This document shows, one piece after another, positions 4,822-33,982 of a stretch of DNA of 64,000 nt. The stretch's first letter is position 1, and each line of letters opens with the position of its first letter. Made by a program: the position numbers and the translations under genes. Below the pieces are notes generated by a model that ran no database searches, was not told the origin of the DNA, and saw only the letters and a list, made by a program, of their open reading frames with translations. The DNA is from Faecalibacillus sp. (GTDB lineage Bacteria > Bacillota_I > Bacilli_A > RFN20 > CAG-826): the NCBI GenBank assembly GCA_963588175.1, contig CAVAGP010000003.1, forward strand, positions 34,871 through 98,870. Direction: 5' to 3'.

Positions 4822-5232
4822 TTAGTCCTCCTTTCCAACAACTTTGCAGTTGATTGGAAGCTTGAAGGCAGCTTGTCTTAATGCGTTCTTGGCGATCTCT
4901 GCATCGATTCCGCCGATTTCGAATAAGATGCGGCCTTTTTTGACGACTGCTACCCATCCTTCTGGTGATCCTTTACCGGAACCCATACGAACTTCAGCAG
5001 GCTTCTTTGTTTTTGCGAGGTGAGGGAAGATTCTGATCCATACCTTGCCTGAACGGTCTGTATATCTTGATAAGACCTTACGAGCGGCTTCGATCTGATG
5101 ATCGGTGATGTATTCACCTTCTTCAGCCTGTAAACCCCATTCGCCGAAAGCAACATAGTTGCCTTTGGTCGCGACGCCTTCGTGGCTTAATCCATGAGGA
5201 CGGCGATATTTAACACGCTTTGGCTGTAACAT
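4822..5232 (-). CDS. rplP: 50S ribosomal protein L16
   Basis: 136 aa, [13 protein letters not shown] start. Confidence 0.95.
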
Positions 5233-5915
5233 TATTTCCTTCCTCCTTCTGGCTTATCAGCCTTTTTGACTGAGGCTTTGTTTGTTGATCTGCAAATCCA
5301 GACTTTGACGCCGATGCAGCCATATTCTGTGTTGGCTGGAACTGCGGCATAGTCGATGTCTGCACGATAGGTCTCTAGTGGGACAACGCCCTCTTTATAA
5401 CCTTCACGTCTAGCGATTTCAGCACCGCCTAAACGTCCCTGGCACTGGGTCTTGCAACCTTCAGCACCGGCTTTTCTCATTCTCTGAAGAGCCTTCTTCT
5501 GAGTTGATCTGAATGATTGTCTGTTCTCAAGTTCGGATGCGATCCACTTTGCAATCAATGTTGCATCAAGATCTGGGTTCTTAACCTCAACGACTTTGAG
5601 GGAAACATCGCCTGATTTGACGACTTTCTTGAGAGCTGCGACTGCTGCTTTGATGTTTGTGTCATCCTGTCCGAGGAATGCTCCTGGACGAGCAACATAT
5701 GCGACGACTGAGACGTTAGCGCCTTTGTCGTTCTTGACTCTTGAGATGTCGATGTGTGATGTCATGGCGACTTTGAGCATTGGCTCTAATGTCTTACGAA
5801 TCTTGACATCTTCATCAAGGAATTTTGCGAAGTCTTGTTTGGAAGCATACCAATTAGCATTCCAACCGCGGTTGACGCCAACTCTAAGACCTACTGGATT
5901 AACTTTCTGTCCCAT
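5232..5915 (-). CDS. rpsC: 30S ribosomal protein S3
   Basis: 227 aa, [13 protein letters not shown] start, KH domain. Confidence 0.95.
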
Positions 5916-16013: not shown

Positions 16014-17153
16014 CTACTCTGATGCAACTAAGGCGCTTAAAAGAGCCCATGAAAGGTTAAAACCCCCGCAAATCCCATCTATATTAACCGATTCGCCAAT
16101 AAAATAGACACCTTTTTCTCTTTTTGACATAAGTTTTGAATCGAGTTCTTTTGTGCTTATTCCACCGACGGTTACCTGTGAGGATGAAAAGTCATATACA
16201 TCTTTTATTGTAAAAATAACGTTCTTCAATGCGTGTGCCCAATACTCAGGAGATTGTTTCCCTCCCTTAGGCAACAGGTAATTGATAAGTTCAGGAGAGA
16301 TGAATCCAAGCATGTATTCTTTGCTGATTTTTGCAGACGTTTTTATCATCTCGAGCAATTCACTCTCGCTATATTCAGGGAATAAATCAACATTGAGTTT
16401 TGCGTCATTAACGTTTGTGTATGATCTAGCGTAAATGGACTCAATATTAAAAATAACAATTCCGGAAATGCCATCATCTTTAAACAGCACTTCCCCTTCT
16501 TCGCTATAAACGCCCTTGCCATTGATCACTAACGAAACGGAAGCCTTGTGGCGTTGGCCTGAAATCGATTTGACTTTTTCTTTGAGAATGAATGGGCAAA
16601 GTCCTGGCACTAAAGGAGCGATATCATAACCATGGTCAGCAATCTCGTTGAATATCTCGCCGTCGCTGCCAAGTTTTGGAGTGGACGCGCCGCCCGTTGA
16701 GAAAACAACTATATCAAACGGTCCTTTATCGTTAAGGTAATAACCATTGTTTTTCTTTGAGTAAGACTCGATTCTAGTTCCGGTCAATATCTTTATCTTT
16801 TTGTCTTCCAAGAGTCTTAAAAGCTGATTCAAAAAGTTTTTGGCACTATAAGAAAGAGGATATACAAGTTCGCCTTTCTTCGTTAATGGTATTCCCCATT
16901 TTGAAAATACCGATTCCAAATAGGCATATGGATATTTATTGAGTACAGACGACATATAAGGAGCATCGTTAAAATCCCCTGGGCAAATTGATGAATTTAA
17001 AAGATTACAATGGCCATTGCCTGTTGCGAGAATCTTTCTGCCGGGTTTTGTTTCCTTTTCGAAAATGGTGATGGTGTCTTCAGGATGTCTATCTTTTCTA
17101 AGAAGAGAGTAATAGATTCCAGATGCGCCTGCACCAACCACCGCAATATTCAT
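16014..17153 (-). CDS. HI0933-like (YhiN/BaiN family) FAD-dependent flavoprotein
   Basis: VVGAGASG dinucleotide-binding motif and TGNGHCNL, a variant of the family TGNGRCN motif; 379 aa. Confidence 0.8.
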   Translation of the reverse strand: MNIAVVGAGASGIYYSLLRKDRHPEDTITIFEKETKPGRKILATGNGHCNLLNSSICPGDFNDAPYMSSVLNKYPYAYLESVFSKWGIPLTKKGELVYPLSYSAKNFLNQLLRLLEDKKIKILTGTRIESYSKKNNGYYLNDKGPFDIVVFSTGGASTPKLGSDGEIFNEIADHGYDIAPLVPGLCPFILKEKVKSISGQRHKASVSLVINGKGVYSEEGEVLFKDDGISGIVIFNIESIYARSYTNVNDAKLNVDLFPEYSESELLEMIKTSAKISKEYMLGFISPELINYLLPKGGKQSPEYWAHALKNVIFTIKDVYDFSSSQVTVGGISTKELDSKLMSKREKGVYFIGESVNIDGICGGFNLSWALLSALVASE

Positions 17154-17231
17154 GTCTATATTGTACCAATTTACGGAGCAAATGCATTTTTCCTTTTAAT
17201 AATATTAGGAAGATGGGCATAATTAGCCGGC

Positions 17232-17723
17232 ATGAAAAAGTTAATCCTAGTATGTGGCCCTGCCGCAATCGGCAAGAGTTCATTCTGCAAAAAATATCAA
17301 GCCACTCATCCTGAAGAAGATGTGAAAATCATCGCAGCAGATGAGGTGAGAAAAGAAATGTGCGGTTCATATAAAGCCTTCCCGCCAGGAAAGAATATGA
17401 AACCAGTTTATAGGAAAATGATTGAGATCATCAAAGATTTGAGCAGCAAAACTGATAACCTAACCATAATGTTAGATACAACGCTATTGTATGACGGATT
17501 AAGGCTGTATTTCATCGAGCAACTACCGATGTTCGAATATAGATGCCTTTATCTTCTCAAACTTCACGATTACAAAATTTGTTTGGTTAGGAATAAGCAA
17601 AGAATCGAAGAGAAATGGGTTCCTGACGATGTAATTCTATCCATGGCGAAGAACTATCGTGACCCTGCGCCAGAAGTTGCTGCAAAATTCAACGAATGCA
17701 AAGAATTCTATGTAGATGAATGA
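17232..17723 (+). CDS. P-loop NTPase of the AAA_33 / polynucleotide-kinase-like family (paralog 2)
   Basis: Walker A GPAAIGKSS, 163 aa. Collinear with the ORF at 14417. Confidence 0.6.
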   Translation: MKKLILVCGPAAIGKSSFCKKYQATHPEEDVKIIAADEVRKEMCGSYKAFPPGKNMKPVYRKMIEIIKDLSSKTDNLTIMLDTTLLYDGLRLYFIEQLPMFEYRCLYLLKLHDYKICLVRNKQRIEEKWVPDDVILSMAKNYRDPAPEVAAKFNECKEFYVDE

Positions 17724-17763
17724 AAAATGCGCAGGATTTGCGCATTTTTTATCGTTTTGTAGA

Positions 17764-18660
17764 TTATTTCGTAGAGCCCGATTCTTCTCTCTTGTTAATC
17801 TCTTCGTTAACCATTCTCCAAGCTTTTTCTTTACTCATCTTGTGATATCCAGGGCCCAATGTTTTGTCGAGCTCTTCATGGAATATCTTTTTGAAAGATG
17901 AGGCGGTAACAAGTTTCGGTTCTTCTTTCTTCTCAACAGGAGCAGGAACTACTGGCTCCTCTTGTACAACAATTTCGTGAACCTCTTCTTTCTTAGGCGC
18001 TTTGAAGATGACGAACTTTCTAGTTAAGTAATTGTAGATCATCGTCACGATTGTCTTGACGCAGAATACCGCGACGAAACACCAGAAGGCTATTCCGCCT
18101 TCGTTGAATAGCTCAGACCAAGAAACCCTCGTGATGTCATATGTGATGCCAACATTCCAAACAGAGTTGCAGAGGAATACTCCGCCTTCCTGAACTCCGA
18201 CTCCAATGCATAAGCCAATGAATCCGAGGAAGAAGTATGTCCAGAACGCTTTCGCGGATTTGGTGTTGACCTTCTTGTCGACATTTTGGAAAACCCAAAG
18301 GCGGGAAAGAATGAAATTAACACACGTTGAAATGATGAACCCAACCGTAATTGCAATTGCAAAGGCGACATAGAATCCCCAGTTTCCAATCTGAGATAAA
18401 TTGTTTTCGAAAACCTTGAGCATGCCAAACTGGCAGCCAAAATCAACAAGTGTGCACACTACACCAGTGACACAGAAACGAAGAATTTCCCTAAATAAAG
18501 ATTTCTTCTTTTTAGTTTTCTTTTCGTCTAAAGCTTTCTCTGCGGCATCAGCCTCAACTATTGTCGCGTTTCTCTTTTCTTCAACGCTGAGAGAAACGTC
18601 TTCAGAGGTCTCCATTTTCTTTGTTTCAACCTCAACAGCGGTTTCTTTATTCTTTTTCAT
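17764..18660 (-). CDS. GtrA-like membrane protein with a charged C-terminal extension
   Basis: Contains REILRFCVTGVVCTLVDF...FILSRLWVF, the GtrA-family pattern, and four hydrophobic helices. Confidence 0.6.
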   Translation of the reverse strand: MKKNKETAVEVETKKMETSEDVSLSVEEKRNATIVEADAAEKALDEKKTKKKKSLFREILRFCVTGVVCTLVDFGCQFGMLKVFENNLSQIGNWGFYVAFAIAITVGFIISTCVNFILSRLWVFQNVDKKVNTKSAKAFWTYFFLGFIGLCIGVGVQEGGVFLCNSVWNVGITYDITRVSWSELFNEGGIAFWCFVAVFCVKTIVTMIYNYLTRKFVIFKAPKKEEVHEIVVQEEPVVPAPVEKKEEPKLVTASSFKKIFHEELDKTLGPGYHKMSKEKAWRMVNEEINKREESGSTK

Positions 18661-18683
18661 AAATGTATTCTACCAAATTGTTA

Positions 18684-20816
18684 TTAGAGTTGGTCAATTT
18701 CTTTTAAGAAATCTTGGCTGCTAGCATCGCTTGGCATCCTCCAATCGCCTCTAGGAGAGATTGATACGGTTCCAACTTTTACTCCATCCGGGAGGCAGCT
18801 TCTCTTGAATTGGTTCTGGAAGAATCTTCTATAGAATTCTCTCAACCACTTCTTGATTGTTGCGTCATCATACGTATCTCCATGAGCCTGTTTTGCAATA
18901 TAGAACAATTTCTTTGGGCCATAACCATTTCTTAAGAAATGGAAGATAAAGAAATCATGAAGCTCATACGGTCCGATCTTGTCTTCGGTCTTCTGGGCTA
19001 TCTGACCATCTTTTCCAGTTGGAAGCAACTCAGGGCTGATTGGGGTATCAATGATATCAAGCAACGGCCTTTTGGCTTCCTCATGCATCAAAGCATAGCC
19101 ATGGCAAAGATATCTTACTAGAGTCTTTGGGATTGAGGCATTGACGCCATAATTTGACATATGGTCACCATTATACGTGCACCAGCCAAGACAAAGCTCA
19201 CTTAAATCCCCTGTGCCAATCATCAATGCGTTGAGGTCGTTTGCCATATCCATCAATACCTGGGTTCTTTCTCTTGCTTGAGCATTTTCATATGTGACAT
19301 TATGGTTTTCTTCATCATGCCCGATGTCTTTAAGGTGTTGGAGAACCGATGCTTTGATGTTGACTTCTTGGAATGTAACCCCTAAGCAATTCGCTAAATC
19401 CAAAGCGTTATCATGGGTTCTTGATGAAGTTCCAAAAGCTGGAAGGGTTACCGCGTAAATGCCTTTAAGGTCATAATGCAATTTCTTGAATGCCTCAACC
19501 GTGACAAGCAAAGCAAGCGTGGAATCAAGTCCGCCAGACAATCCAATTATCGCCCTGTTCTGCCTAACTGTTTTTAAACGCTTAACAAGCCCTTGAGCTT
19601 GGATATCCAATACGGCTTGAACTCTATTGAAATCTATCTCTTTCTCATTAGGAATGAATGGATTCTTGTCATAACGGTGATAAAGTTTATCTTTGAGTTT
19701 GATAACCTTATCAAAATAAATTGTCTGATATCCTCTTTCGATAGGGTTAGAGAATGTTGTCATCTTTCTTCTTTCAGATAATAAACGTTCTACATCGGTA
19801 TCCGCGATAGCTTTTTCCATCTCAAAAACCTTTGTTTCTGCAAGGATATTTCCGTTTTCTGCAATGATATTATGCGATGAATAAACTAAGTCGGTGGTCG
19901 ATTCCCCATCACCTGCATTCGCATAAGCGTAGCAGCAGCATAATCTTACAGAAGTGGTTGCAATCAAGTTTCTTCTGAATTCTTTCTTGCCCACCACTTC
20001 ATTAGATCCCGAAAGATTTAGGATGATGTCACATCCCGCCAAAACCAAGCCTGTAGATGGGGTCTGAGGAACCCACAAATCTTCACAGATCTCGATACCG
20101 ATCTTAATCTTCACATACGACTCATCCTGGAACATGAGTTTTGAGCCGAATGGATACTGATGGCCTCTGATGGTGATGGTTGAATTTTCTTCAGGAGCCG
20201 GGGCGAAATGGCGTGCCTCATAATACTCGGAATAATTAGGGATATTGGTTTTAGGAACAACACCCAATATCTTCCCTTTTTGCATTACGATAGCACAGTT
20301 ATAAATGCTGTTGCCCAAGCGAAGTGGAGCGCCAAACGTAAAGAAAAGATCGCTATCTTTCGTGGCCTCTCTAATATCGTCAATTGCCTTATCGGAATTA
20401 TCTAAAAGGACCGTTGTTAAAAACAAATCCCCACAGGTATAGCCCGTTAAACACAATTCAGGCAAAACCAGGATATCTACATTAATCTCATCCGCTTCTT
20501 TAACGGCTTGGATGATTCTTTTCTTATTCTCTTCAATACCACAAACGCTAACTTCAATTGATTGCGTGCATATGCGTACGAAACCTAAAGGCGTTGATTG
20601 CTCTTTAAATTCCATTGAGGATTGTCTTAGAGTTTCTGGCTCTTTGATATAATCCGTGCCGGTTGGCATTATCTTGTCGTATGTTTCCGGGGAAAGAACA
20701 ACAAGATCTAGGTAACCGTTTTTCGTAATGAACAACGTGCCATTATTTTCATTGAGGTCACTCTCTAATTTGTTTGTGTCTCTTAAGGACGAAATTGGTT
20801 GTATTTTGTTTTTCAT
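18684..20816 (-). CDS. nadE: Glutamine-dependent NAD+ synthetase (nitrilase + NAD-synthetase domains) with an in-frame N-terminal ~67-aa Phd/YefM-like domain
   Basis: The nitrilase domain has GFVRICTQSIEVS...LPELCLTGY and the synthetase domain has GLSGGLDSTLALL. Residues 1-67 (ISSLRDTNKLESDLNENNGTLFITKNGYLDLVVLSPETYDKI) resemble Phd/YefM antitoxins. There is no stop codon and no Shine-Dalgarno between the two domains. Confidence 0.8.
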   Translation of the reverse strand: MKNKIQPISSLRDTNKLESDLNENNGTLFITKNGYLDLVVLSPETYDKIMPTGTDYIKEPETLRQSSMEFKEQSTPLGFVRICTQSIEVSVCGIEENKKRIIQAVKEADEINVDILVLPELCLTGYTCGDLFLTTVLLDNSDKAIDDIREATKDSDLFFTFGAPLRLGNSIYNCAIVMQKGKILGVVPKTNIPNYSEYYEARHFAPAPEENSTITIRGHQYPFGSKLMFQDESYVKIKIGIEICEDLWVPQTPSTGLVLAGCDIILNLSGSNEVVGKKEFRRNLIATTSVRLCCCYAYANAGDGESTTDLVYSSHNIIAENGNILAETKVFEMEKAIADTDVERLLSERRKMTTFSNPIERGYQTIYFDKVIKLKDKLYHRYDKNPFIPNEKEIDFNRVQAVLDIQAQGLVKRLKTVRQNRAIIGLSGGLDSTLALLVTVEAFKKLHYDLKGIYAVTLPAFGTSSRTHDNALDLANCLGVTFQEVNIKASVLQHLKDIGHDEENHNVTYENAQARERTQVLMDMANDLNALMIGTGDLSELCLGWCTYNGDHMSNYGVNASIPKTLVRYLCHGYALMHEEAKRPLLDIIDTPISPELLPTGKDGQIAQKTEDKIGPYELHDFFIFHFLRNGYGPKKLFYIAKQAHGDTYDDATIKKWLREFYRRFFQNQFKRSCLPDGVKVGTVSISPRGDWRMPSDASSQDFLKEIDQL

Positions 20817-20853
20817 GCCAAAATATTAGCATAATTTTGACATTTGTTAATAA

Positions 20854-21924
20854 CTATCTATTGATGGCCCATTTAATAACGTCTTTGTCACTTTGGTGAG
20901 TTACAGTTTTGATTGCGTCATCAGGTGTCATCCAAGAAATTGATGACACTTCGCATTCCTGCGCAATCGTGTCGACATTTGAGGCAACCGCTCTAAAGAA
21001 TACAACTTTCTTAACGCATCCAGGGAACGGTGAATAATAAATGAAATAAGAATCGTCTCCCTGAATTTCTACATCTAGATTAGTTTCCTCTTTAATCTCT
21101 CTTAAGGCAGTGCCTTTTTCTCCATCATCACCAACTTCAACATGGCCTTTGGGGATTGAATAATGTCCGCCAGCCATATGTTCAACAAGGATTTTCCCAT
21201 CGTGGAATACCACTGCACCGCAGCTCTTTTCTTGTTTATGAAGCAAGTTGCATAATGTCGCAATCTTATCATCGCTTAAACCGATAAATTTGAAATATTC
21301 GATTGGAGAACCATATCTCTTCTTGAATTCGTCAATCACTTTAGGCAAGAAATTGACATTAGGTTCAATTACGCAAAGTGGCAACAAAGGTTTGCCATCT
21401 TTAAACGCTTTGGAATAAAGCTTAGGCAATAATGGGTAAGTAATCATATAATCGGCGCATATATCGTTGAATGATACCCCGGCTGCCCAAAGCAAAAGCA
21501 AAGAATAGGCCCCAGTTCTATCTTTCCCCGCTGTGCAGTGAATGATGCAAGGTTTCTCGCAATCTGCAATAGTTTCGAGAATTTGCTTGGAATTTGCAGG
21601 ATTTTCAAACATTTCCATATAAGATTCGACCGTGTCATCGAAATCTTTCGGAATTCTCCCTGCACCATTAACGCATATTTGATATGTCTTGATTCCAAGA
21701 ACGCCAAATGTGCAATCCGGACGATCATTGCAATTTTCCGGTGTTCTAAAATCGATAACGGTTTTAACGCCAAGCGATTGGATTTTCTTCAAATCATTTG
21801 CGGTGCCTTCACTTAAATCTCCAGATCTAAAAATGACGCCAAATGCAGTCTCACCATATTGCGTTTCATATCCACCTAAATCACGGAAGTTTTCAATTTC
21901 CTCAAAGTTATAATGTCTTGCCAT
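20854..21924 (-). CDS. Fusion protein: N-terminal Cys-based protein-tyrosine-phosphatase-like domain + C-terminal NUDIX hydrolase
   Basis: CX5R P-loop HCTAGKDRTG at around aa 130. Nudix box GHYSIPKGHVEVGDDGEKGTALREIKEETNL at around aa 255-285. Confidence 0.75.
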   Translation of the reverse strand: MARHYNFEEIENFRDLGGYETQYGETAFGVIFRSGDLSEGTANDLKKIQSLGVKTVIDFRTPENCNDRPDCTFGVLGIKTYQICVNGAGRIPKDFDDTVESYMEMFENPANSKQILETIADCEKPCIIHCTAGKDRTGAYSLLLLWAAGVSFNDICADYMITYPLLPKLYSKAFKDGKPLLPLCVIEPNVNFLPKVIDEFKKRYGSPIEYFKFIGLSDDKIATLCNLLHKQEKSCGAVVFHDGKILVEHMAGGHYSIPKGHVEVGDDGEKGTALREIKEETNLDVEIQGDDSYFIYYSPFPGCVKKVVFFRAVASNVDTIAQECEVSSISWMTPDDAIKTVTHQSDKDVIKWAINR

Positions 21925-21947
21925 AGCAATAAGTCTAATTGAACAGA

Positions 21948-21976
21948 CAAAAAAAGAAAGCCATTTTCAGGCTTTC
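21948..21976 (-). terminator. Intrinsic terminator downstream of mscL (GAAAGCC/GGCTTTC stem plus U7)
   Basis: Read directly from the sequence on the minus strand. Confidence 0.55.
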
Positions 21977-22001
21977 CATATTTGAATTATCTAAGTTTAG
22001 A

Positions 22002-22607
22002 TTACTCAGCAGCAGCTTCTTCAACTGGTTCTTCTTTCTTTGCAAGAGTTGCTTTTGCCTTTGTTTCAAGTTCAAGTCTCTTCTTTGAGAATGCGGCAGC
22101 AACCTTAACAACGATGAAGAGCGTTAACGCAACGATGAGGAATGAGATTACAGCGTTGATGAACGTTCCCCAGTCGATAACAGCGGAAAGATTGTAAGTG
22201 TATGTTGATCCGTGAAGTGTGTACTTACTTGTGAGGAATGTCTTAGCGGATTCAATAAGGTTAGGATTCTCGGTGAGGTAGTTAGGATTTGCTGCAATCT
22301 GCTCTGCGTAGTTTCCTTCTGCAACTGTTGTTGCTAATTTCTGTAAATCGGCAGCAGCGAACTTCTGTCCGATGCCGTCGATGCCTTTCTGAGCATCATT
22401 TAAAGCCGGAAGGACTGTGACTAATCCTTTTAAGCCTCCTGGAACTGCCCATGTGCATAAGCTTAATAAGATGTTGGTCAATGCTGTAACAATTGTGTTG
22501 AATGCGCCGCCGATGATGACACCAACTGCCATATCGAGAACGTTACCGCGGCTAATGAATGCTTTGAATTCGTTCCAAAGACTTTTTGCTTTGTTTTCTT
22601 TTGCCAT
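22002..22607 (-). CDS. mscL: Large-conductance mechanosensitive channel MscL with a ~60-aa insertion in the periplasmic loop
   Basis: N-terminal [23 protein letters not shown], the MscL signature. 201 aa versus about 130-150 aa for typical MscL. Start placed at the ATG with a GGAGG Shine-Dalgarno (22607). Confidence 0.8.
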
Positions 22608-22797
22608 AATGATTATGACCTCCAATTTCCGTTAGATATTCTACTATCTAAATCCGCAATTTAAAGACGGACAGGATGTTTTTTTGCAATTTGTGGTGCT
22701 TTAATCGTTTTTGATCACCGATTTTTGCGCCTTAAAACACATAAAGCGGTTTCTTGCCCGTGGTAAAAAGAAAAGGCTAAAGGTAGAATATAGAGCC

Positions 22798-23406: not shown

Positions 23407-24060
23407 TTAGTCGTTAACCTGAGTTCCGAAGATACGGTCACCGCAGTCGCCTAATCCAGGGCAGATATAAGCGTTGCTGTTGAGTTCTCTATCAAGAGTG
23501 CCGACATAAACCGGGATTTCTGGGAATTTCTCCGCAAACGCTTTGACGCCTTCTGGCGCGGCGATGATGCAGATGAATGTGATGTCTTTGACTCCGTGTT
23601 TGTGAAGAGATTCGACTGCATCGATTGCAGATCCGCCTGTTGCAAGCATTGGGTCAAGAAGGAAGACTTTCATCTTTGAAATGCTCTTTGGAAGCTTGCA
23701 GTAATATTCAACCGGAGTATGCGTTTCTTCGTTACGATACATTCCAAGATGACCAACGTGTGCGTTAGGAATGAGCTGTGTCATGCCATCAACCATTCCA
23801 AGTCCCGCTCTTAGGATCGGAACGAAACATATATCACGTCCTTCGACAACTGGCTGAACAGTCTTTTCGATAGGTGTCTGAATCTCAACATCCTGAGTTG
23901 GGATAGTCTTGAAAGCTTCATATCCCTCGAGAACCGCCACTTCTTTAACAAGTTGTCTAAACTGAGCGGTTGGAGTGTTGACATCTCTCATCTTAGAGAT
24001 TTTGTGTTTGAGCAAAGGATGCTGAATGAATGTGAAATTTGTGTATTTTGATAAATCCAT
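23407..24060 (-). CDS. upp: Uracil phosphoribosyltransferase
   Basis: Contains HPLLKHKISKMRD...LLDPMLATGGS, which are UPRT motifs. Start placed at ATG 24060, which has a GGAGG Shine-Dalgarno; ATG 24075 is an alternative. Confidence 0.9.
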   Translation of the reverse strand: MDLSKYTNFTFIQHPLLKHKISKMRDVNTPTAQFRQLVKEVAVLEGYEAFKTIPTQDVEIQTPIEKTVQPVVEGRDICFVPILRAGLGMVDGMTQLIPNAHVGHLGMYRNEETHTPVEYYCKLPKSISKMKVFLLDPMLATGGSAIDAVESLHKHGVKDITFICIIAAPEGVKAFAEKFPEIPVYVGTLDRELNSNAYICPGLGDCGDRIFGTQVND

Positions 24061-24326
24061 TGACCGGACCTCCATATAATCCTTATCAAGTTTAATAAGG
24101 CGGATGGAAATGAAAAGAATTTTCTTTCGATTCGTTACAAAAAATAAAAAAGCTTCGATAATCACGAAGTTTTCTCTTTGAAGTGGGTTTATCATTGTAT
24201 TATATCAAAGCCTTTTTTTCAATATGAAAACGTCTTTTTGAAAATCTTTTTAATTATTGTCATTAATTGGTTGACTTAACAAAGATATAGAGGAAAATAA
24301 CCGACGGAAAAAACGGGAGGGAGAAT

Positions 24327-32845: not shown

Positions 32846-33982
32846 ATGAATTACAGCGCAATAGATAATTACATCGATTATTTGATGACCTCAAAACCGG
32901 ATATGCCTCTTTGGAATATCGAATCAATCAGGCAAGGAAAGAAACCTGCTTGGAATTACATTGATGGGTGCATGATGACCTCCCTCATCGAAATGTATAA
33001 AACAACAGGAGACAAGAAGTATCTGAACTTTGTTTTGTCATTTGTCGATTATTATGTTTTTGAAGATGGAACTATAAGAGGATATGACCCAACTAAATAT
33101 TCCACGGATGACGTATGTGAATCTCGCATTCTGTTCGATTTATATAAATATACGAATAATGATAAGTATCTAAAAGCAATTAAGATTACGTACACGCAAA
33201 TAGAAAAACACCCTAGAACCAAAGAGGGGAACTTCTTCCATAAAGCAATCTACCATGACCAAGTCTGGCTTGATGGACTCTATATGATTCAGCCCTTCTA
33301 CACCAGATACCAGACCGAATTTGGTGGATGCGATTACACCGATATCGTTAATCAATTCAAGAATGTTAAAAGAATAATGTTCAATGAAAAAGACGGTCTA
33401 TATTATCACGGGTATGACGAGTCAAGAACCCTGTTCTGGGCCGATAAAAAAACAGGTTTATCCAAAAATTATTGGCTTAGGTCAATCGGATGGTATTTAA
33501 CGGGTTTAATCGATGTTTATTCTTTTATGGATGATTCAAAAACCCAACAAAAAGCGGATATAGCAAACATTTTCCAAGATTCTATCAAGGGAATATTAAG
33601 ATACAGGGATCCTGAGACAAACATGTTTTATCAAGTGCCAAATTATCCAGGTAGAGAGGGAAATTATCTTGAAACATCCGGTTCTTCAATGATTGCCTAC
33701 GCAATATTGAAGGGGTCAAGACTTGGTGTTTTGCCGCCTGAATATAAAGATGTCGGAAAAGATATATTTGAAGGCATTGGAAAAAAATATATGTCGATTG
33801 GAGAAGATGGCTCATTAAATCTCAAAGGGATATGCCTTGTTGCTGGGCTCGGTCCTGAAAATAACAAAAGAAGAGATGGTTCATACGAATACTATATTTC
33901 TGAACCAGTCGTAGAAAATGACGCGAAAGGCGTTGGACCATTTATAATGGCCTATACAGAAATCAAAAAATTAGAAAAATAA
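32846..33982 (+). CDS. Unsaturated rhamnogalacturonyl hydrolase (GH105 / GH88-like)
   Basis: Carries the YteR/YesR-like motifs WLDGLYM, HGYDE and WLRSIGW. Confidence 0.8.
   Translation: MNYSAIDNYIDYLMTSKPDMPLWNIESIRQGKKPAWNYIDGCMMTSLIEMYKTTGDKKYLNFVLSFVDYYVFEDGTIRGYDPTKYSTDDVCESRILFDLYKYTNNDKYLKAIKITYTQIEKHPRTKEGNFFHKAIYHDQVWLDGLYMIQPFYTRYQTEFGGCDYTDIVNQFKNVKRIMFNEKDGLYYHGYDESRTLFWADKKTGLSKNYWLRSIGWYLTGLIDVYSFMDDSKTQQKADIANIFQDSIKGILRYRDPETNMFYQVPNYPGREGNYLETSGSSMIAYAILKGSRLGVLPPEYKDVGKDIFEGIGKKYMSIGEDGSLNLKGICLVAGLGPENNKRRDGSYEYYISEPVVENDAKGVGPFIMAYTEIKKLEK

Follow-up and report, generated by a model that had tools for sequence, protein, structure and literature searches.

How should one interpret a gene that joins two phosphohydrolase domains in a single polypeptide and lies directly upstream of a NAD synthase gene? 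This question is raised by a stretch of 64,000 nucleotides (nt) from Faecalibacillus sp. (assembly GCA_963588175.1, contig CAVAGP010000003.1; hereafter the window, 42.6% G+C), in which one open reading frame (ORF) on the minus strand encodes a Cys-based phosphatase followed by a Nudix hydrolase. An earlier interpretation of this locus made from the DNA alone (the sequence-only reading) had proposed that the fusion protein hydrolyzes a phosphoanhydride-rich substrate in two steps and that it may be co-transcribed with, and functionally linked to, nadE. In the present analysis, the fusion is a genuine, conserved gene whose product may break down nucleotide polyphosphates sequentially, a reading to which we give a probability of roughly 0.45, whereas its contact with nadE seems to be a chance outcome of gene arrangement and not a functional link.

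The ORF was located exactly at the coordinates first proposed (20854-21924), and nadE was confirmed as the next ORF downstream, co-oriented and 37 nt away (20817-20853). Domain searches with hidden Markov models placed both Pfam families, Y_phosphatase3 and NUDIX, above their cut-offs in the same polypeptide. A homologue search of 5.8 billion proteins returned 502 matches at E<=1e-5, and the best 120 were inspected: all but one (119/120) are proteins of 350-404 aa carrying both Pfam domains. The same fusion was observed in more than 100 protein clusters of ~360 aa, with sequences originating from JGI, ENA, NCBI, and Logan assemblies of many samples and lying on contigs of up to 1.4 Mb. Thus, a frameshift or assembly artefact, which had been raised in advance as a possible explanation, is ruled out by the large number of full-length homologues sharing this architecture and by the length of their contigs. 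The fusion homologues all come from uncultured gut or rumen Bacilli, and the genome records of close relatives are metagenome-assembled genomes of uncultured Bacilli (from horse faeces and reindeer rumen, for example). A second, filter-free HMMER scan of 1.84 billion representatives clustered at 50% yielded only about four full-length fusion representatives (P0063 and P0121-P0123; 40-49% identity), which makes the fusion one compact clade and not a widespread architecture. For the analyses below, motifs were counted in 120 full-length sequences (the 119 homologues plus the window protein, or query), an alignment of 51 sequences (A1) was used to define invariant residues, and separate profiles were built for the Nudix half (A2) and the phosphatase half (A3).

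The N-terminal half clearly falls, by sequence comparison, into the Y_phosphatase3/PtpB class. Pfam family PF13350 covers residues 6-228 and nearly the full profile (positions 2-238 of 240; E=5.7e-46, 157.9 bits against a cut-off of 22.2). Searching PDB with profile A3 retrieved the protein tyrosine phosphatase (PTP) of Clostridioides difficile (8dhi, E=2.5e-33) and PtpB of Mycobacterium tuberculosis (E=4.2e-20), and Foldseek comparison of the phosphatase half with PDB gave the same two proteins (8dhj, E=4e-13, TM-score (TMt) 0.73-0.75, 27-29% identity for 8dhj/8dhi; PtpB 1ywf, E=4e-11, TMt 0.69). The sequence-only reading had named both Y_phosphatase3 and the Siw14/PFA-DSP-type enzymes as relatives of this half. 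The first assignment held, whereas the resemblance to the second group is confined to the P-loop: Siw14 and plant PFA-DSPs (6byf, 7mok, and 1xri) matched A3 at E=4e-5 to 9e-5 over profile positions ~111-173 alone, and Pfam Y_phosphatase2 (PF03162) scored 18.0 bits, under its 27-bit cut-off. All other PTP-type Pfam families, namely Y_phosphatase2, PTP-NADK, PTP-SAK, and Tc-R-P, were below their curated cut-offs.

Loss of catalytic residues in either domain would have spoken against a working fusion enzyme, and no such loss was seen among the residues to which a catalytic role could be assigned. In the phosphatase half, the HCxxGKDRTG P-loop is kept in 120/120 sequences; C130 and G133-G138 are invariant in both A1 and A3, and H129 is invariant in A1 and conserved to at least 90% in A3. 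The complete set of invariant positions of this half in A1 comprises N12, F13, R14, G17, G18, D58, R60, H129, C130, and G133-K-D-R-T-G138. Two invariant residues, D58 and D97, are candidates for the general acid. In the C. difficile PTP, the counterpart of D97 is the Asp of 'EDM' and that of D58-x-R60 is FDYRS; in PtpB, the latter motif aligns with VADLRS. The general acid of PtpB, reportedly D82, lies in a loop that could not be mapped onto the query by sequence.

The C-terminal half matches PF00293 (NUDIX) over residues 236-352 (E=2e-12, 47.7 bits, cut-off 21.1). Its Nudix box had been described as complete, which is correct for the metal-binding residues R275, E276, E279, and E280 but not for the strict consensus. 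In comparison with GX5EX7REUXEEXGU, which is matched by 0/120 sequences, the query box is longer by a one-residue insertion, and Asp and Asn (N282) occupy the positions of the first Glu and the final Gly, respectively. This variant is specific to the clade: the relaxed pattern G-x5-[DE]-x8-RE-U-x-EE was found in 104/120 sequences, all 104 with Asp at the variable acidic position; the last Gly position of the box is occupied by [GNSD] in the clade, with Asn in the query and in 25/104 sequences. The catalytic R-E-x2-E-E residues are invariant in the 51 sequences of A1, as are E232, S234, G236, H254, K259, G260, H261, E263, and D266 before them and S298, G302, and K305 after them. A stand-alone relative of 149 aa (L006), 54% identical to residues 230-353, has canonical box spacing. 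Leading into the box, the motif GH[YF][SA]x[PT]KGH is present in 119/120 full-length sequences. In the A2 alignments, the query version HYSIPKGH corresponds to HWTPPKGH of NUDT2 and likewise matches the motif of CT771, Y297 (at least 90% conserved) corresponds to the Tyr of NUDT2 'LNY', and K305 to the Lys of 'KPK'. The functional role of these motif and Tyr residues in hydrolases of diadenosine polyphosphates (ApnA) is known from the C. elegans and human structures.

Profile and structure comparisons agree on the closest characterized relatives of the Nudix half. The best matches of A2 in PDB were the Aquifex Ap4A hydrolase (3i7u, 1.1e-17), CT771 (2.1e-15), NUDT2 (2.4e-12), Ndx1 (8.8e-11), and Rv2985 (1.4e-10), and each of the ten top-ranking sequences is either an ApnA hydrolase or MutT1/Rv2985 (E=1.1e-17 to 6.7e-10). 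ADP-ribose pyrophosphatases reached 2.5e-7 at best, about 10 orders of magnitude worse than the ApnA hydrolases, and NudC was not listed among the A2 matches to PDB at E<=1e-4. Foldseek placed the Thermus Ap6A hydrolase Ndx1 (TMt 0.90, root-mean-square deviation (rmsd) 1.4 A) together with the Aquifex Ap4A hydrolase, MutT1, Rv2985 (titled 'a Nudix diadenosine polyphosphatase' in PDB), CT771, NUDT2, and the C. elegans Ap4A hydrolase, with TMt of 0.81-0.90 for the ApnA class. The NADH-type SQPWPFP and the CoA-type accessory Nudix motifs occur in 0/120 full-length sequences. Among NCBIfam models, the MutT1 equivalog was the best match of the query Nudix half (37.3 bits against a cut-off of 475, covering the Nudix part only), and NAD+ diphosphatase matched the query with 21.6 bits against a 158-bit cut-off (E=1.2e-4). 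Judged from these comparisons, the Nudix half is a member of the diadenosine-polyphosphate hydrolase/MutT1 class and not of the ADP-ribose or NADH class.

In an AlphaFold2 model built on A1 (mean predicted local distance difference test score 94, predicted TM-score (pTM) 0.90), no linker separates the C-terminal helical region of the phosphatase, which extends to residue 226, from the Nudix domain, whose first strand lies at residue 230. A pTM of 0.90 for a two-domain protein predicts a fixed mutual orientation, implying that the domains are held in a defined arrangement. The active sites comprise the nucleophile C130 and R136 in the phosphatase half, and the metal-binding R275, E276, E279, and E280 together with the ApnA-type residues H254, K259, H261, Y297, and K305 in the Nudix half. 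It is very probable that the gene encodes a true enzyme and that both of its sites are active.

We propose that this product is a cytoplasmic, single-chain, bifunctional phosphohydrolase, in which the Nudix half would cleave a pyrophosphate bond in a nucleoside-5'-polyphosphate compound. Ap4A-Ap6A or other dinucleoside polyphosphates (NpnN), p4A, or a damaged nucleoside triphosphate (NTP) such as 8-oxo-GTP may be the likeliest substrates, since these are substrates of the closest characterized relatives. The Cys-phosphatase half would then take the terminal phosphate off the product, or off related phosphoanhydride-rich molecules, via a thiophosphoryl-Cys130 intermediate, and the two sites together could carry the clearance of alarmone or house-cleaning substrates further than either alone. 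The shared phosphoanhydride-rich substrate suggested by the sequence-only reading stands as plausible. Action of a Cys-phosphatase on phosphoanhydrides has a precedent in Schizosaccharomyces pombe Siw14 (PMC10653929), and MutT1, in which the same Nudix class is joined to a histidine-phosphatase domain, provides an independent precedent for the pairing (PMC11784022). However, several observations weigh against sequential breakdown: the substrate assignment relies on similarity to enzymes sharing only 20-29% identity with the query, the Nudix box carries a one-residue insertion and an E-to-D change, a PTP-only orthologue in the syntenic slot of one relative (L021) indicates that the phosphatase is not strictly dependent on the Nudix half, and the partners of this Nudix clade include non-phosphatases (GNAT, GDSL, Lgt, and PNPOx-like). 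In addition, sequence is a notoriously poor guide to Nudix specificity, and P299 sits 16 residues after the Nudix box, a position at which, by a rule of thumb attributed to Dunn et al. in 1999, a Pro reportedly marks ADP-ribose pyrophosphatases.

The L021 orthologue also bears on a different explanation, in which the two halves have parallel functions: the N-terminal half would be a protein (pTyr/pSer/pThr) or phosphoinositide phosphatase, the Nudix half would clear a stress nucleotide such as Ap4A, and the two would be fused for co-regulation under stress. The proteins closest to the PTP half (8dhi/8dhj and PtpB) carry the label protein tyrosine phosphatase in their deposition or name, the L021 protein suggests that the phosphatase works alone, and the MutT1 Nudix domain acts on the phosphoprotein NDK-P (PMC11784022). 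The same Nudix clade is also joined to CpsB, a protein-tyrosine phosphatase family. However, neither BY-kinase, Hanks-type kinase, nor signalling genes were seen in about 10 sampled neighbourhoods, and the tight, linker-less packing of the modelled domains would rather suggest cooperation. A capsule or BY-kinase context was likewise rejected for the Nudix-CpsB fusions, as no such genes are present at the two sampled loci (L017 and L019). We regard parallel functions as rather unlikely.

Beyond CpsB, the HMMER representative scan and Pfam showed that residues ~230-353 match other architectures at 45-56% identity. The combination of Nudix with a CpsB/CapC PHP-type protein-tyrosine phosphatase (P0228) was found in more than 45 clusters with both Pfam domains; proteins of this family are ~400-430 aa long, and one of the two sampled loci adjoins SbcCD. 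A Metallophos-Nudix fusion (P0216/P0391) occurs on 23 contigs, and its phosphoesterase half is PPP-like, with the symmetrical Ap4A hydrolase ApaH as the best named NCBIfam match (E=7e-9, N-terminal part only). One such gene (P0391, L024 5001-6116) starts 8 nt after rpiB, the gene for ribose-5-phosphate isomerase B. Considering that ribose-5-phosphate is a product of ADP-ribose pyrophosphatases, the role of this relative may be a different one, linked to sugar phosphates. Other partners of the same clade comprise Lgt, several GNAT domains, a GDSL hydrolase, and a PNPOx-like domain, and tandem Nudix proteins and an unknown 390-aa N-terminal region followed by Nudix were also detected. In P0148, a rare 390-aa protein, the PTP domain is of the same class, but its partner is another Nudix domain of the canonical 'PGG' type. 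Together with MutT1, these proteins show that this kind of Nudix domain has been paired with phosphatases repeatedly and independently; since non-phosphatases are also among the partners, the signal is suggestive and not exclusive.

Could the fusion act in NAD metabolism instead, as its position beside nadE had suggested? Under this explanation, the protein would be functionally tied to nadE and its substrate would be ADP-ribose, NAD(P)(H), or a phosphorylated derivative of ADP-ribose; NADP(H), for instance, could be cleaved by the Nudix half and then 2'-dephosphorylated. The window shares the gene order MscL - fusion - nadE - GtrA with its close relatives L001-L003 (77-92% identity), nadE being co-oriented and directly downstream, and nadE lies within one gene of the fusion in L008-L010, L013, and L021. 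The Pro at +16, the weak NAD+ diphosphatase match, a weak Pfam PTP-NADK match (17.9 bits against 27), and the RpiB gene adjoining the Metallophos-Nudix relative point in the same direction. However, the profile ranking of PDB structures and the missing NudC-type motif described above argue against it, and so does the wider gene order. In more distant relatives (L008-L010 and L013; 45-53%), a convergent RimK-type ATP-grasp gene separates the fusion from nadE. In L004 and L005, the convergent ATP-grasp gene (with an alpha/beta hydrolase gene in L005) is present and nadE is absent from the neighbourhood, and nadE is also absent nearby in L011, L014, and L016, so that five sampled lineages lack it beside the fusion. 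No other NAD gene (nadD, nadR, pncA/B, or nadK) is linked to the fusion in the sampled neighbourhoods.

From these comparisons, the ancestral order was NrdD ... MscL> fusion> <(hydrolase) <ATP-grasp nadE> GtrA, and loss of the ATP-grasp gene in the clade of the window brought nadE beside the fusion in a lineage-specific rearrangement. The ATP-grasp gene is a conserved convergent downstream neighbour (L004, L005, L008-L010, L013, L016, and L021), often overlapping the 3' end of the fusion by a few bases, and MscL is the most persistently conserved upstream neighbour, although a terminator-like hairpin stands between MscL and the fusion. In L021, the PTP-only orthologue fills the syntenic slot; behind it come a mobile-element-like gene, then the ATP-grasp gene, and finally nadE. 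This orthologue (5001-5696; 231 aa, 48% identity) lies between MscL and ATP-grasp/nadE, and an opposite-strand AAA-ATPase/PDDEXK_9 gene starts 10 nt past its stop codon, suggesting that the Nudix half was lost through insertion.

The intergenic regions are also difficult to reconcile with the proposed co-transcription with nadE. Strong AGGAGG sites were seen at roughly half of the window's long ORFs, whereas no Shine-Dalgarno (SD) site precedes the fusion ATG or the nadE ATG in the sequence read. Within the gene block 16014-22625, -10 boxes lie 5-7 nt before ATG codons that lack an SD site, namely TGGTACAAT, TGGTAGAAT, TGCTAATAT, CATAAT, and, for the fusion, the weaker TAGACT. The box TGCTAATAT, located in the 37-nt gap before nadE, is conserved as TGnTA[AG][TA]AT in L001-L003, and no terminator was found in that gap. 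SD-less starts with -10 boxes were also observed at 32846 and 58571 (TAGAAT and TATAAT). Such layouts are characteristic of leaderless mRNAs and suggest that these are frequent in the source organism, that nadE is expressed on its own leaderless transcript, and that the fusion ATG is possibly a leaderless start. Since leaderless mRNAs need AUG at the 5' end, each such gene would need a dedicated start site, and with a leaderless-type -10 box and no SD site before nadE, co-transcription is unlikely to be the mode of expression of this gene. The fusion appears to be an independent transcription unit (Table 1). Taken together, the about 10 sampled neighbourhoods and the intergenic analysis lead us to reject a functional operon with nadE, and the adjacency, which is confined to the clade of the window, looks fortuitous; a role in NAD or ADP-ribose turnover is improbable. 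An annotation based on the proximity of nadE would be tempting but unsupported.

Table 1. Features of the fusion gene and its surroundings (positions are those of the window)
Feature	Position	Strand	Basis or remark
Whole ORF, putative bifunctional Cys-phosphatase/Nudix hydrolase	20854..21924	minus	356 aa; ATG 21924; TAG 20856-20854
Y_phosphatase3 (PtpB-class) domain, residues 6-228	21241..21909	minus	Pfam, profile, Foldseek
D58-x-R60 (IDxR motif), second candidate acid or structural motif	21745..21753	minus	Invariant in A1 and A3
D97, possible general acid located 33 residues N-terminal to Cys130	21634..21636	minus	Invariant in fusions and stand-alone orthologues
Catalytic P-loop H129-C130-T-A-G-K-D-R136-T-G138 (HCTAGKDRTG)	21511-21540	minus	Direct sequence reading
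Nudix domain, residues 230-352, ApnA-hydrolase/MutT1 class	20869..21237	minus	Pfam, profile, Foldseek
H254-Y-S-I-P-K259-G-H261 motif, equivalent to HWTPPKGH of NUDT2-type Ap4A hydrolases	21142..21165	minus	119/120
Variant Nudix box G260-HVEVG-D266-DGEKGTAL-R275-E276-I-K-E279-E280-T-N-L283	21076..21147	minus	Direct reading
Weak -10-like box TAGACT, ending 7 nt before fusion ATG	21932..21937	minus	Conserved in L001-L003
Intrinsic-terminator-like hairpin GAAAGCC-TGAAAAT-GGCTTTC + T7, after MscL, ~20 nt before fusion ATG	21945..21977	minus	100% conserved in L001-L003
Extended -10-like box TGCTAATAT, ending 6 nt before nadE ATG	20823..20831	minus	Fusion-nadE gap
MscL, neighbour 5' of fusion	22002..22625	minus	Pfam
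Glutamine-dependent NAD synthase nadE, 710 aa; judged to lie outside the system	18684..20816	minus	NCBIfam PRK02628, 814 bits

Two further explanations take the same pair of active sites to other substrates. In one of them, the fusion would be a polyphosphate (polyP)/inositol-pyrophosphate (PP-InsP) phosphatase pair, i.e., a bacterial analogue of yeast Siw14 and Aps1/Ddp1 in one chain; S. pombe Siw14 hydrolyzes pyrophosphate (PPi), polyP, and PP-InsPs and shows genetic redundancy with Aps1, a Nudix enzyme, so that in yeast PP-InsPs and polyP are handled redundantly by one enzyme of each type (PMC10653929). DIPP/Ddp1-type Nudix enzymes also cleave ApnA, and VTC and DUF4956 genes lie ~4-5 kb upstream of the fusion in L008. 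However, the PTP half lies outside the Siw14/PFA-DSP class, DIPP-type Nudix structures are not among the best matches, and the VTC linkage was seen in one lineage only. Furthermore, PP-InsPs are not known to occur in bacteria. This explanation is very improbable.

The other explanation is that the fusion processes RNA 5' ends: the Nudix half would remove Np4N or NAD caps, or, in the manner of RppH, pyrophosphate from 5'-triphosphate RNA, and the Cys-phosphatase half would be an RNA 5'-phosphatase. Cys-phosphatases with RNA 5'-phosphatase activity exist (PIR1/DUSP11 and BVP), both ApaH and RppH decap Np4N-RNA, and BdRppH and Dcp2 are among the matches of the Nudix half (Foldseek E=3e-8; profile 2.5e-5 to 7.9e-5). 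However, these matches are far weaker than those to ApnA hydrolases, there is no NCBIfam RppH/YtkD match at E<0.01, and RNA-metabolism genes are missing among the neighbours. RNA processing is likewise very improbable. Two other candidates were dropped. A riboswitch or other RNA clue near the fusion gene was ruled out, as neither Rfam families at gathering score nor tRNA genes were detected in the whole 64-kb window, and membership in a defence system was abandoned because the PADLOC match was weak (PDC-S07, E=4.7e-5, on the Nudix part), with PTP-SAK, Tc-R-P, and PTP-NADK below their Pfam cut-offs.

Several features of the neighbouring genes were recorded in passing. The nadE product has an N-terminal extension of ~70 aa (codons at ~20607-20816) with weak similarity to the Phd/YefM antitoxin (Pfam E=3e-4, below cut-off); the extension is conserved in relatives, which are 709-711 aa long and align from residue 1, and an antitoxin-like domain on NadE is unusual. 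MscL has 207 aa in the window versus 221-260 aa in relatives, and its Pfam model is spread over residues 16-198, suggesting a large insertion. The GtrA-like protein (17764-18660, minus strand) has 298 aa with charged N- and C-terminal extensions, versus 182-187 aa in L008 and L013. Finally, the first ~45 aa of a uracil phosphoribosyltransferase-like ORF (23407-24195, minus strand) are 71% identical to the L001 counterpart versus 97% for the rest, and its true start is probably an internal Met near 'MDLSKY'.

Returning to sequential breakdown of nucleotide polyphosphates, both halves of the fusion come from thoroughly studied superfamilies, and the added value lies in the pattern of one Nudix clade joined to several phosphatase folds: independent fusion of one Ap4A-class Nudix clade to unrelated phosphatase folds is a classic signal of functional coupling. 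If this coupling is real, it bears on how Firmicutes-like bacteria finish dinucleoside polyphosphate degradation and on the true substrates of PtpB-class 'tyrosine phosphatases', PtpB itself being a drug target in M. tuberculosis, as well as on what the orphan phosphatase domain of MutT1 does. A broader generalization, which we consider quite unlikely, is that an ApnA-type Nudix domain with a phosphomonoesterase forms a recurrent, so far unrecognized two-enzyme module, assembled at least four times with unrelated folds (Cys-PTP, PHP/CpsB, PPP/Metallophos, and the histidine phosphatase of MutT1). If true, bacterial 'protein tyrosine phosphatases' of the PtpB and CpsB types would, at least in such fusions, be directed at nucleotides or polyphosphates and would complete the catabolism of dinucleoside polyphosphate alarmones (or of Np4N RNA caps), and a function would be supplied for the histidine-phosphatase domain of MutT1, which has been described as 'of unknown activity' (PMC11784022).

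The fusion can be compared with several known systems. A search of the accessible literature found no paper on the Y_phosphatase3-Nudix architecture or on the C. difficile PTP structures 8dhi/8dhj. However, the architecture has already been picked up by automatic annotation, with homologues named 'tyrosine-protein phosphatase [Bacilli bacterium]' and 'protein tyrosine/serine phosphatase / MutT (NUDIX family)'. Taken separately, the halves resemble stand-alone enzymes. The C. difficile PTP (8dhi/8dhj) and PtpB (1ywf) share Y_phosphatase3, HCxAGKDRTG, NFRDxGG, IDxR, and a helical C-terminal subdomain with the query, but they lack a fused partner, are 20-29% identical, and, in the case of PtpB, are represented by a secreted virulence factor with a large insertion. 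Residues 230-356 find their best matches in sequence, profile, and fold among the asymmetric ApnA hydrolases (aq_158 3i7u, CT771 4ilq, NUDT2 3u53/4ick, the C. elegans enzyme 1ktg, and Ndx1 1vc8), which likewise have the H-x3-P-K-G-H motif, a Tyr and a Lys downstream of it, and a helix at the C terminus; unlike the query, these enzymes stand alone, at ~130-150 aa, and the spacing of their Nudix box is canonical, with only 20-28% identity to the query. Yeast Siw14 and Aps1/Ddp1 also bring one Cys-phosphatase and one Nudix enzyme to the same phosphoanhydrides (PMC10653929), but as separate proteins, with Siw14 belonging to the Y_phosphatase2/PFA-DSP class and the PP-InsP substrates being eukaryotic.

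Among fused proteins, the Nudix-CpsB and Metallophos-Nudix families contain the same Nudix clade (~50% identity to residues 230-353) and a phosphatase-type domain, whereas their phosphatase folds (PHP and PPP, respectively) are unrelated to that of the query, they occur in other organisms, and the CpsB fusion has a different domain order. Another parallel is mycobacterial MutT1 (M. smegmatis MutT1 and M. tuberculosis Rv2985; 5gg5 and 9cxx), which hydrolyzes 8-oxo-(d)GTP to 8-oxo-(d)GDP and is also a diadenosine polyphosphatase (PMC11784022; PDB title of 9cxx). It is likewise a two-domain protein combining the same Nudix subclass with a phosphatase, and the MutT1-type structures match the query Nudix domain with profile E-values of 1.4e-10 (Rv2985) and 4.5e-10 and an rmsd of ~1.6 A. 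However, the MutT1 partner is a C-terminal RHG histidine phosphatase of unrelated fold, whereas that of the query is an N-terminal Cys-phosphatase of the PtpB class; no C-terminal RHG histidine-phosphatase domain was found in the query, whose sole non-Nudix domain in Pfam is the N-terminal PF13350. MutT1 comes from Actinobacteria and the fusion from uncultured Bacilli. The relationship is an analogy of architecture, not orthology: the fusion is a bifunctional Nudix-phosphatase analogous to MutT1 with a different phosphatase fold.

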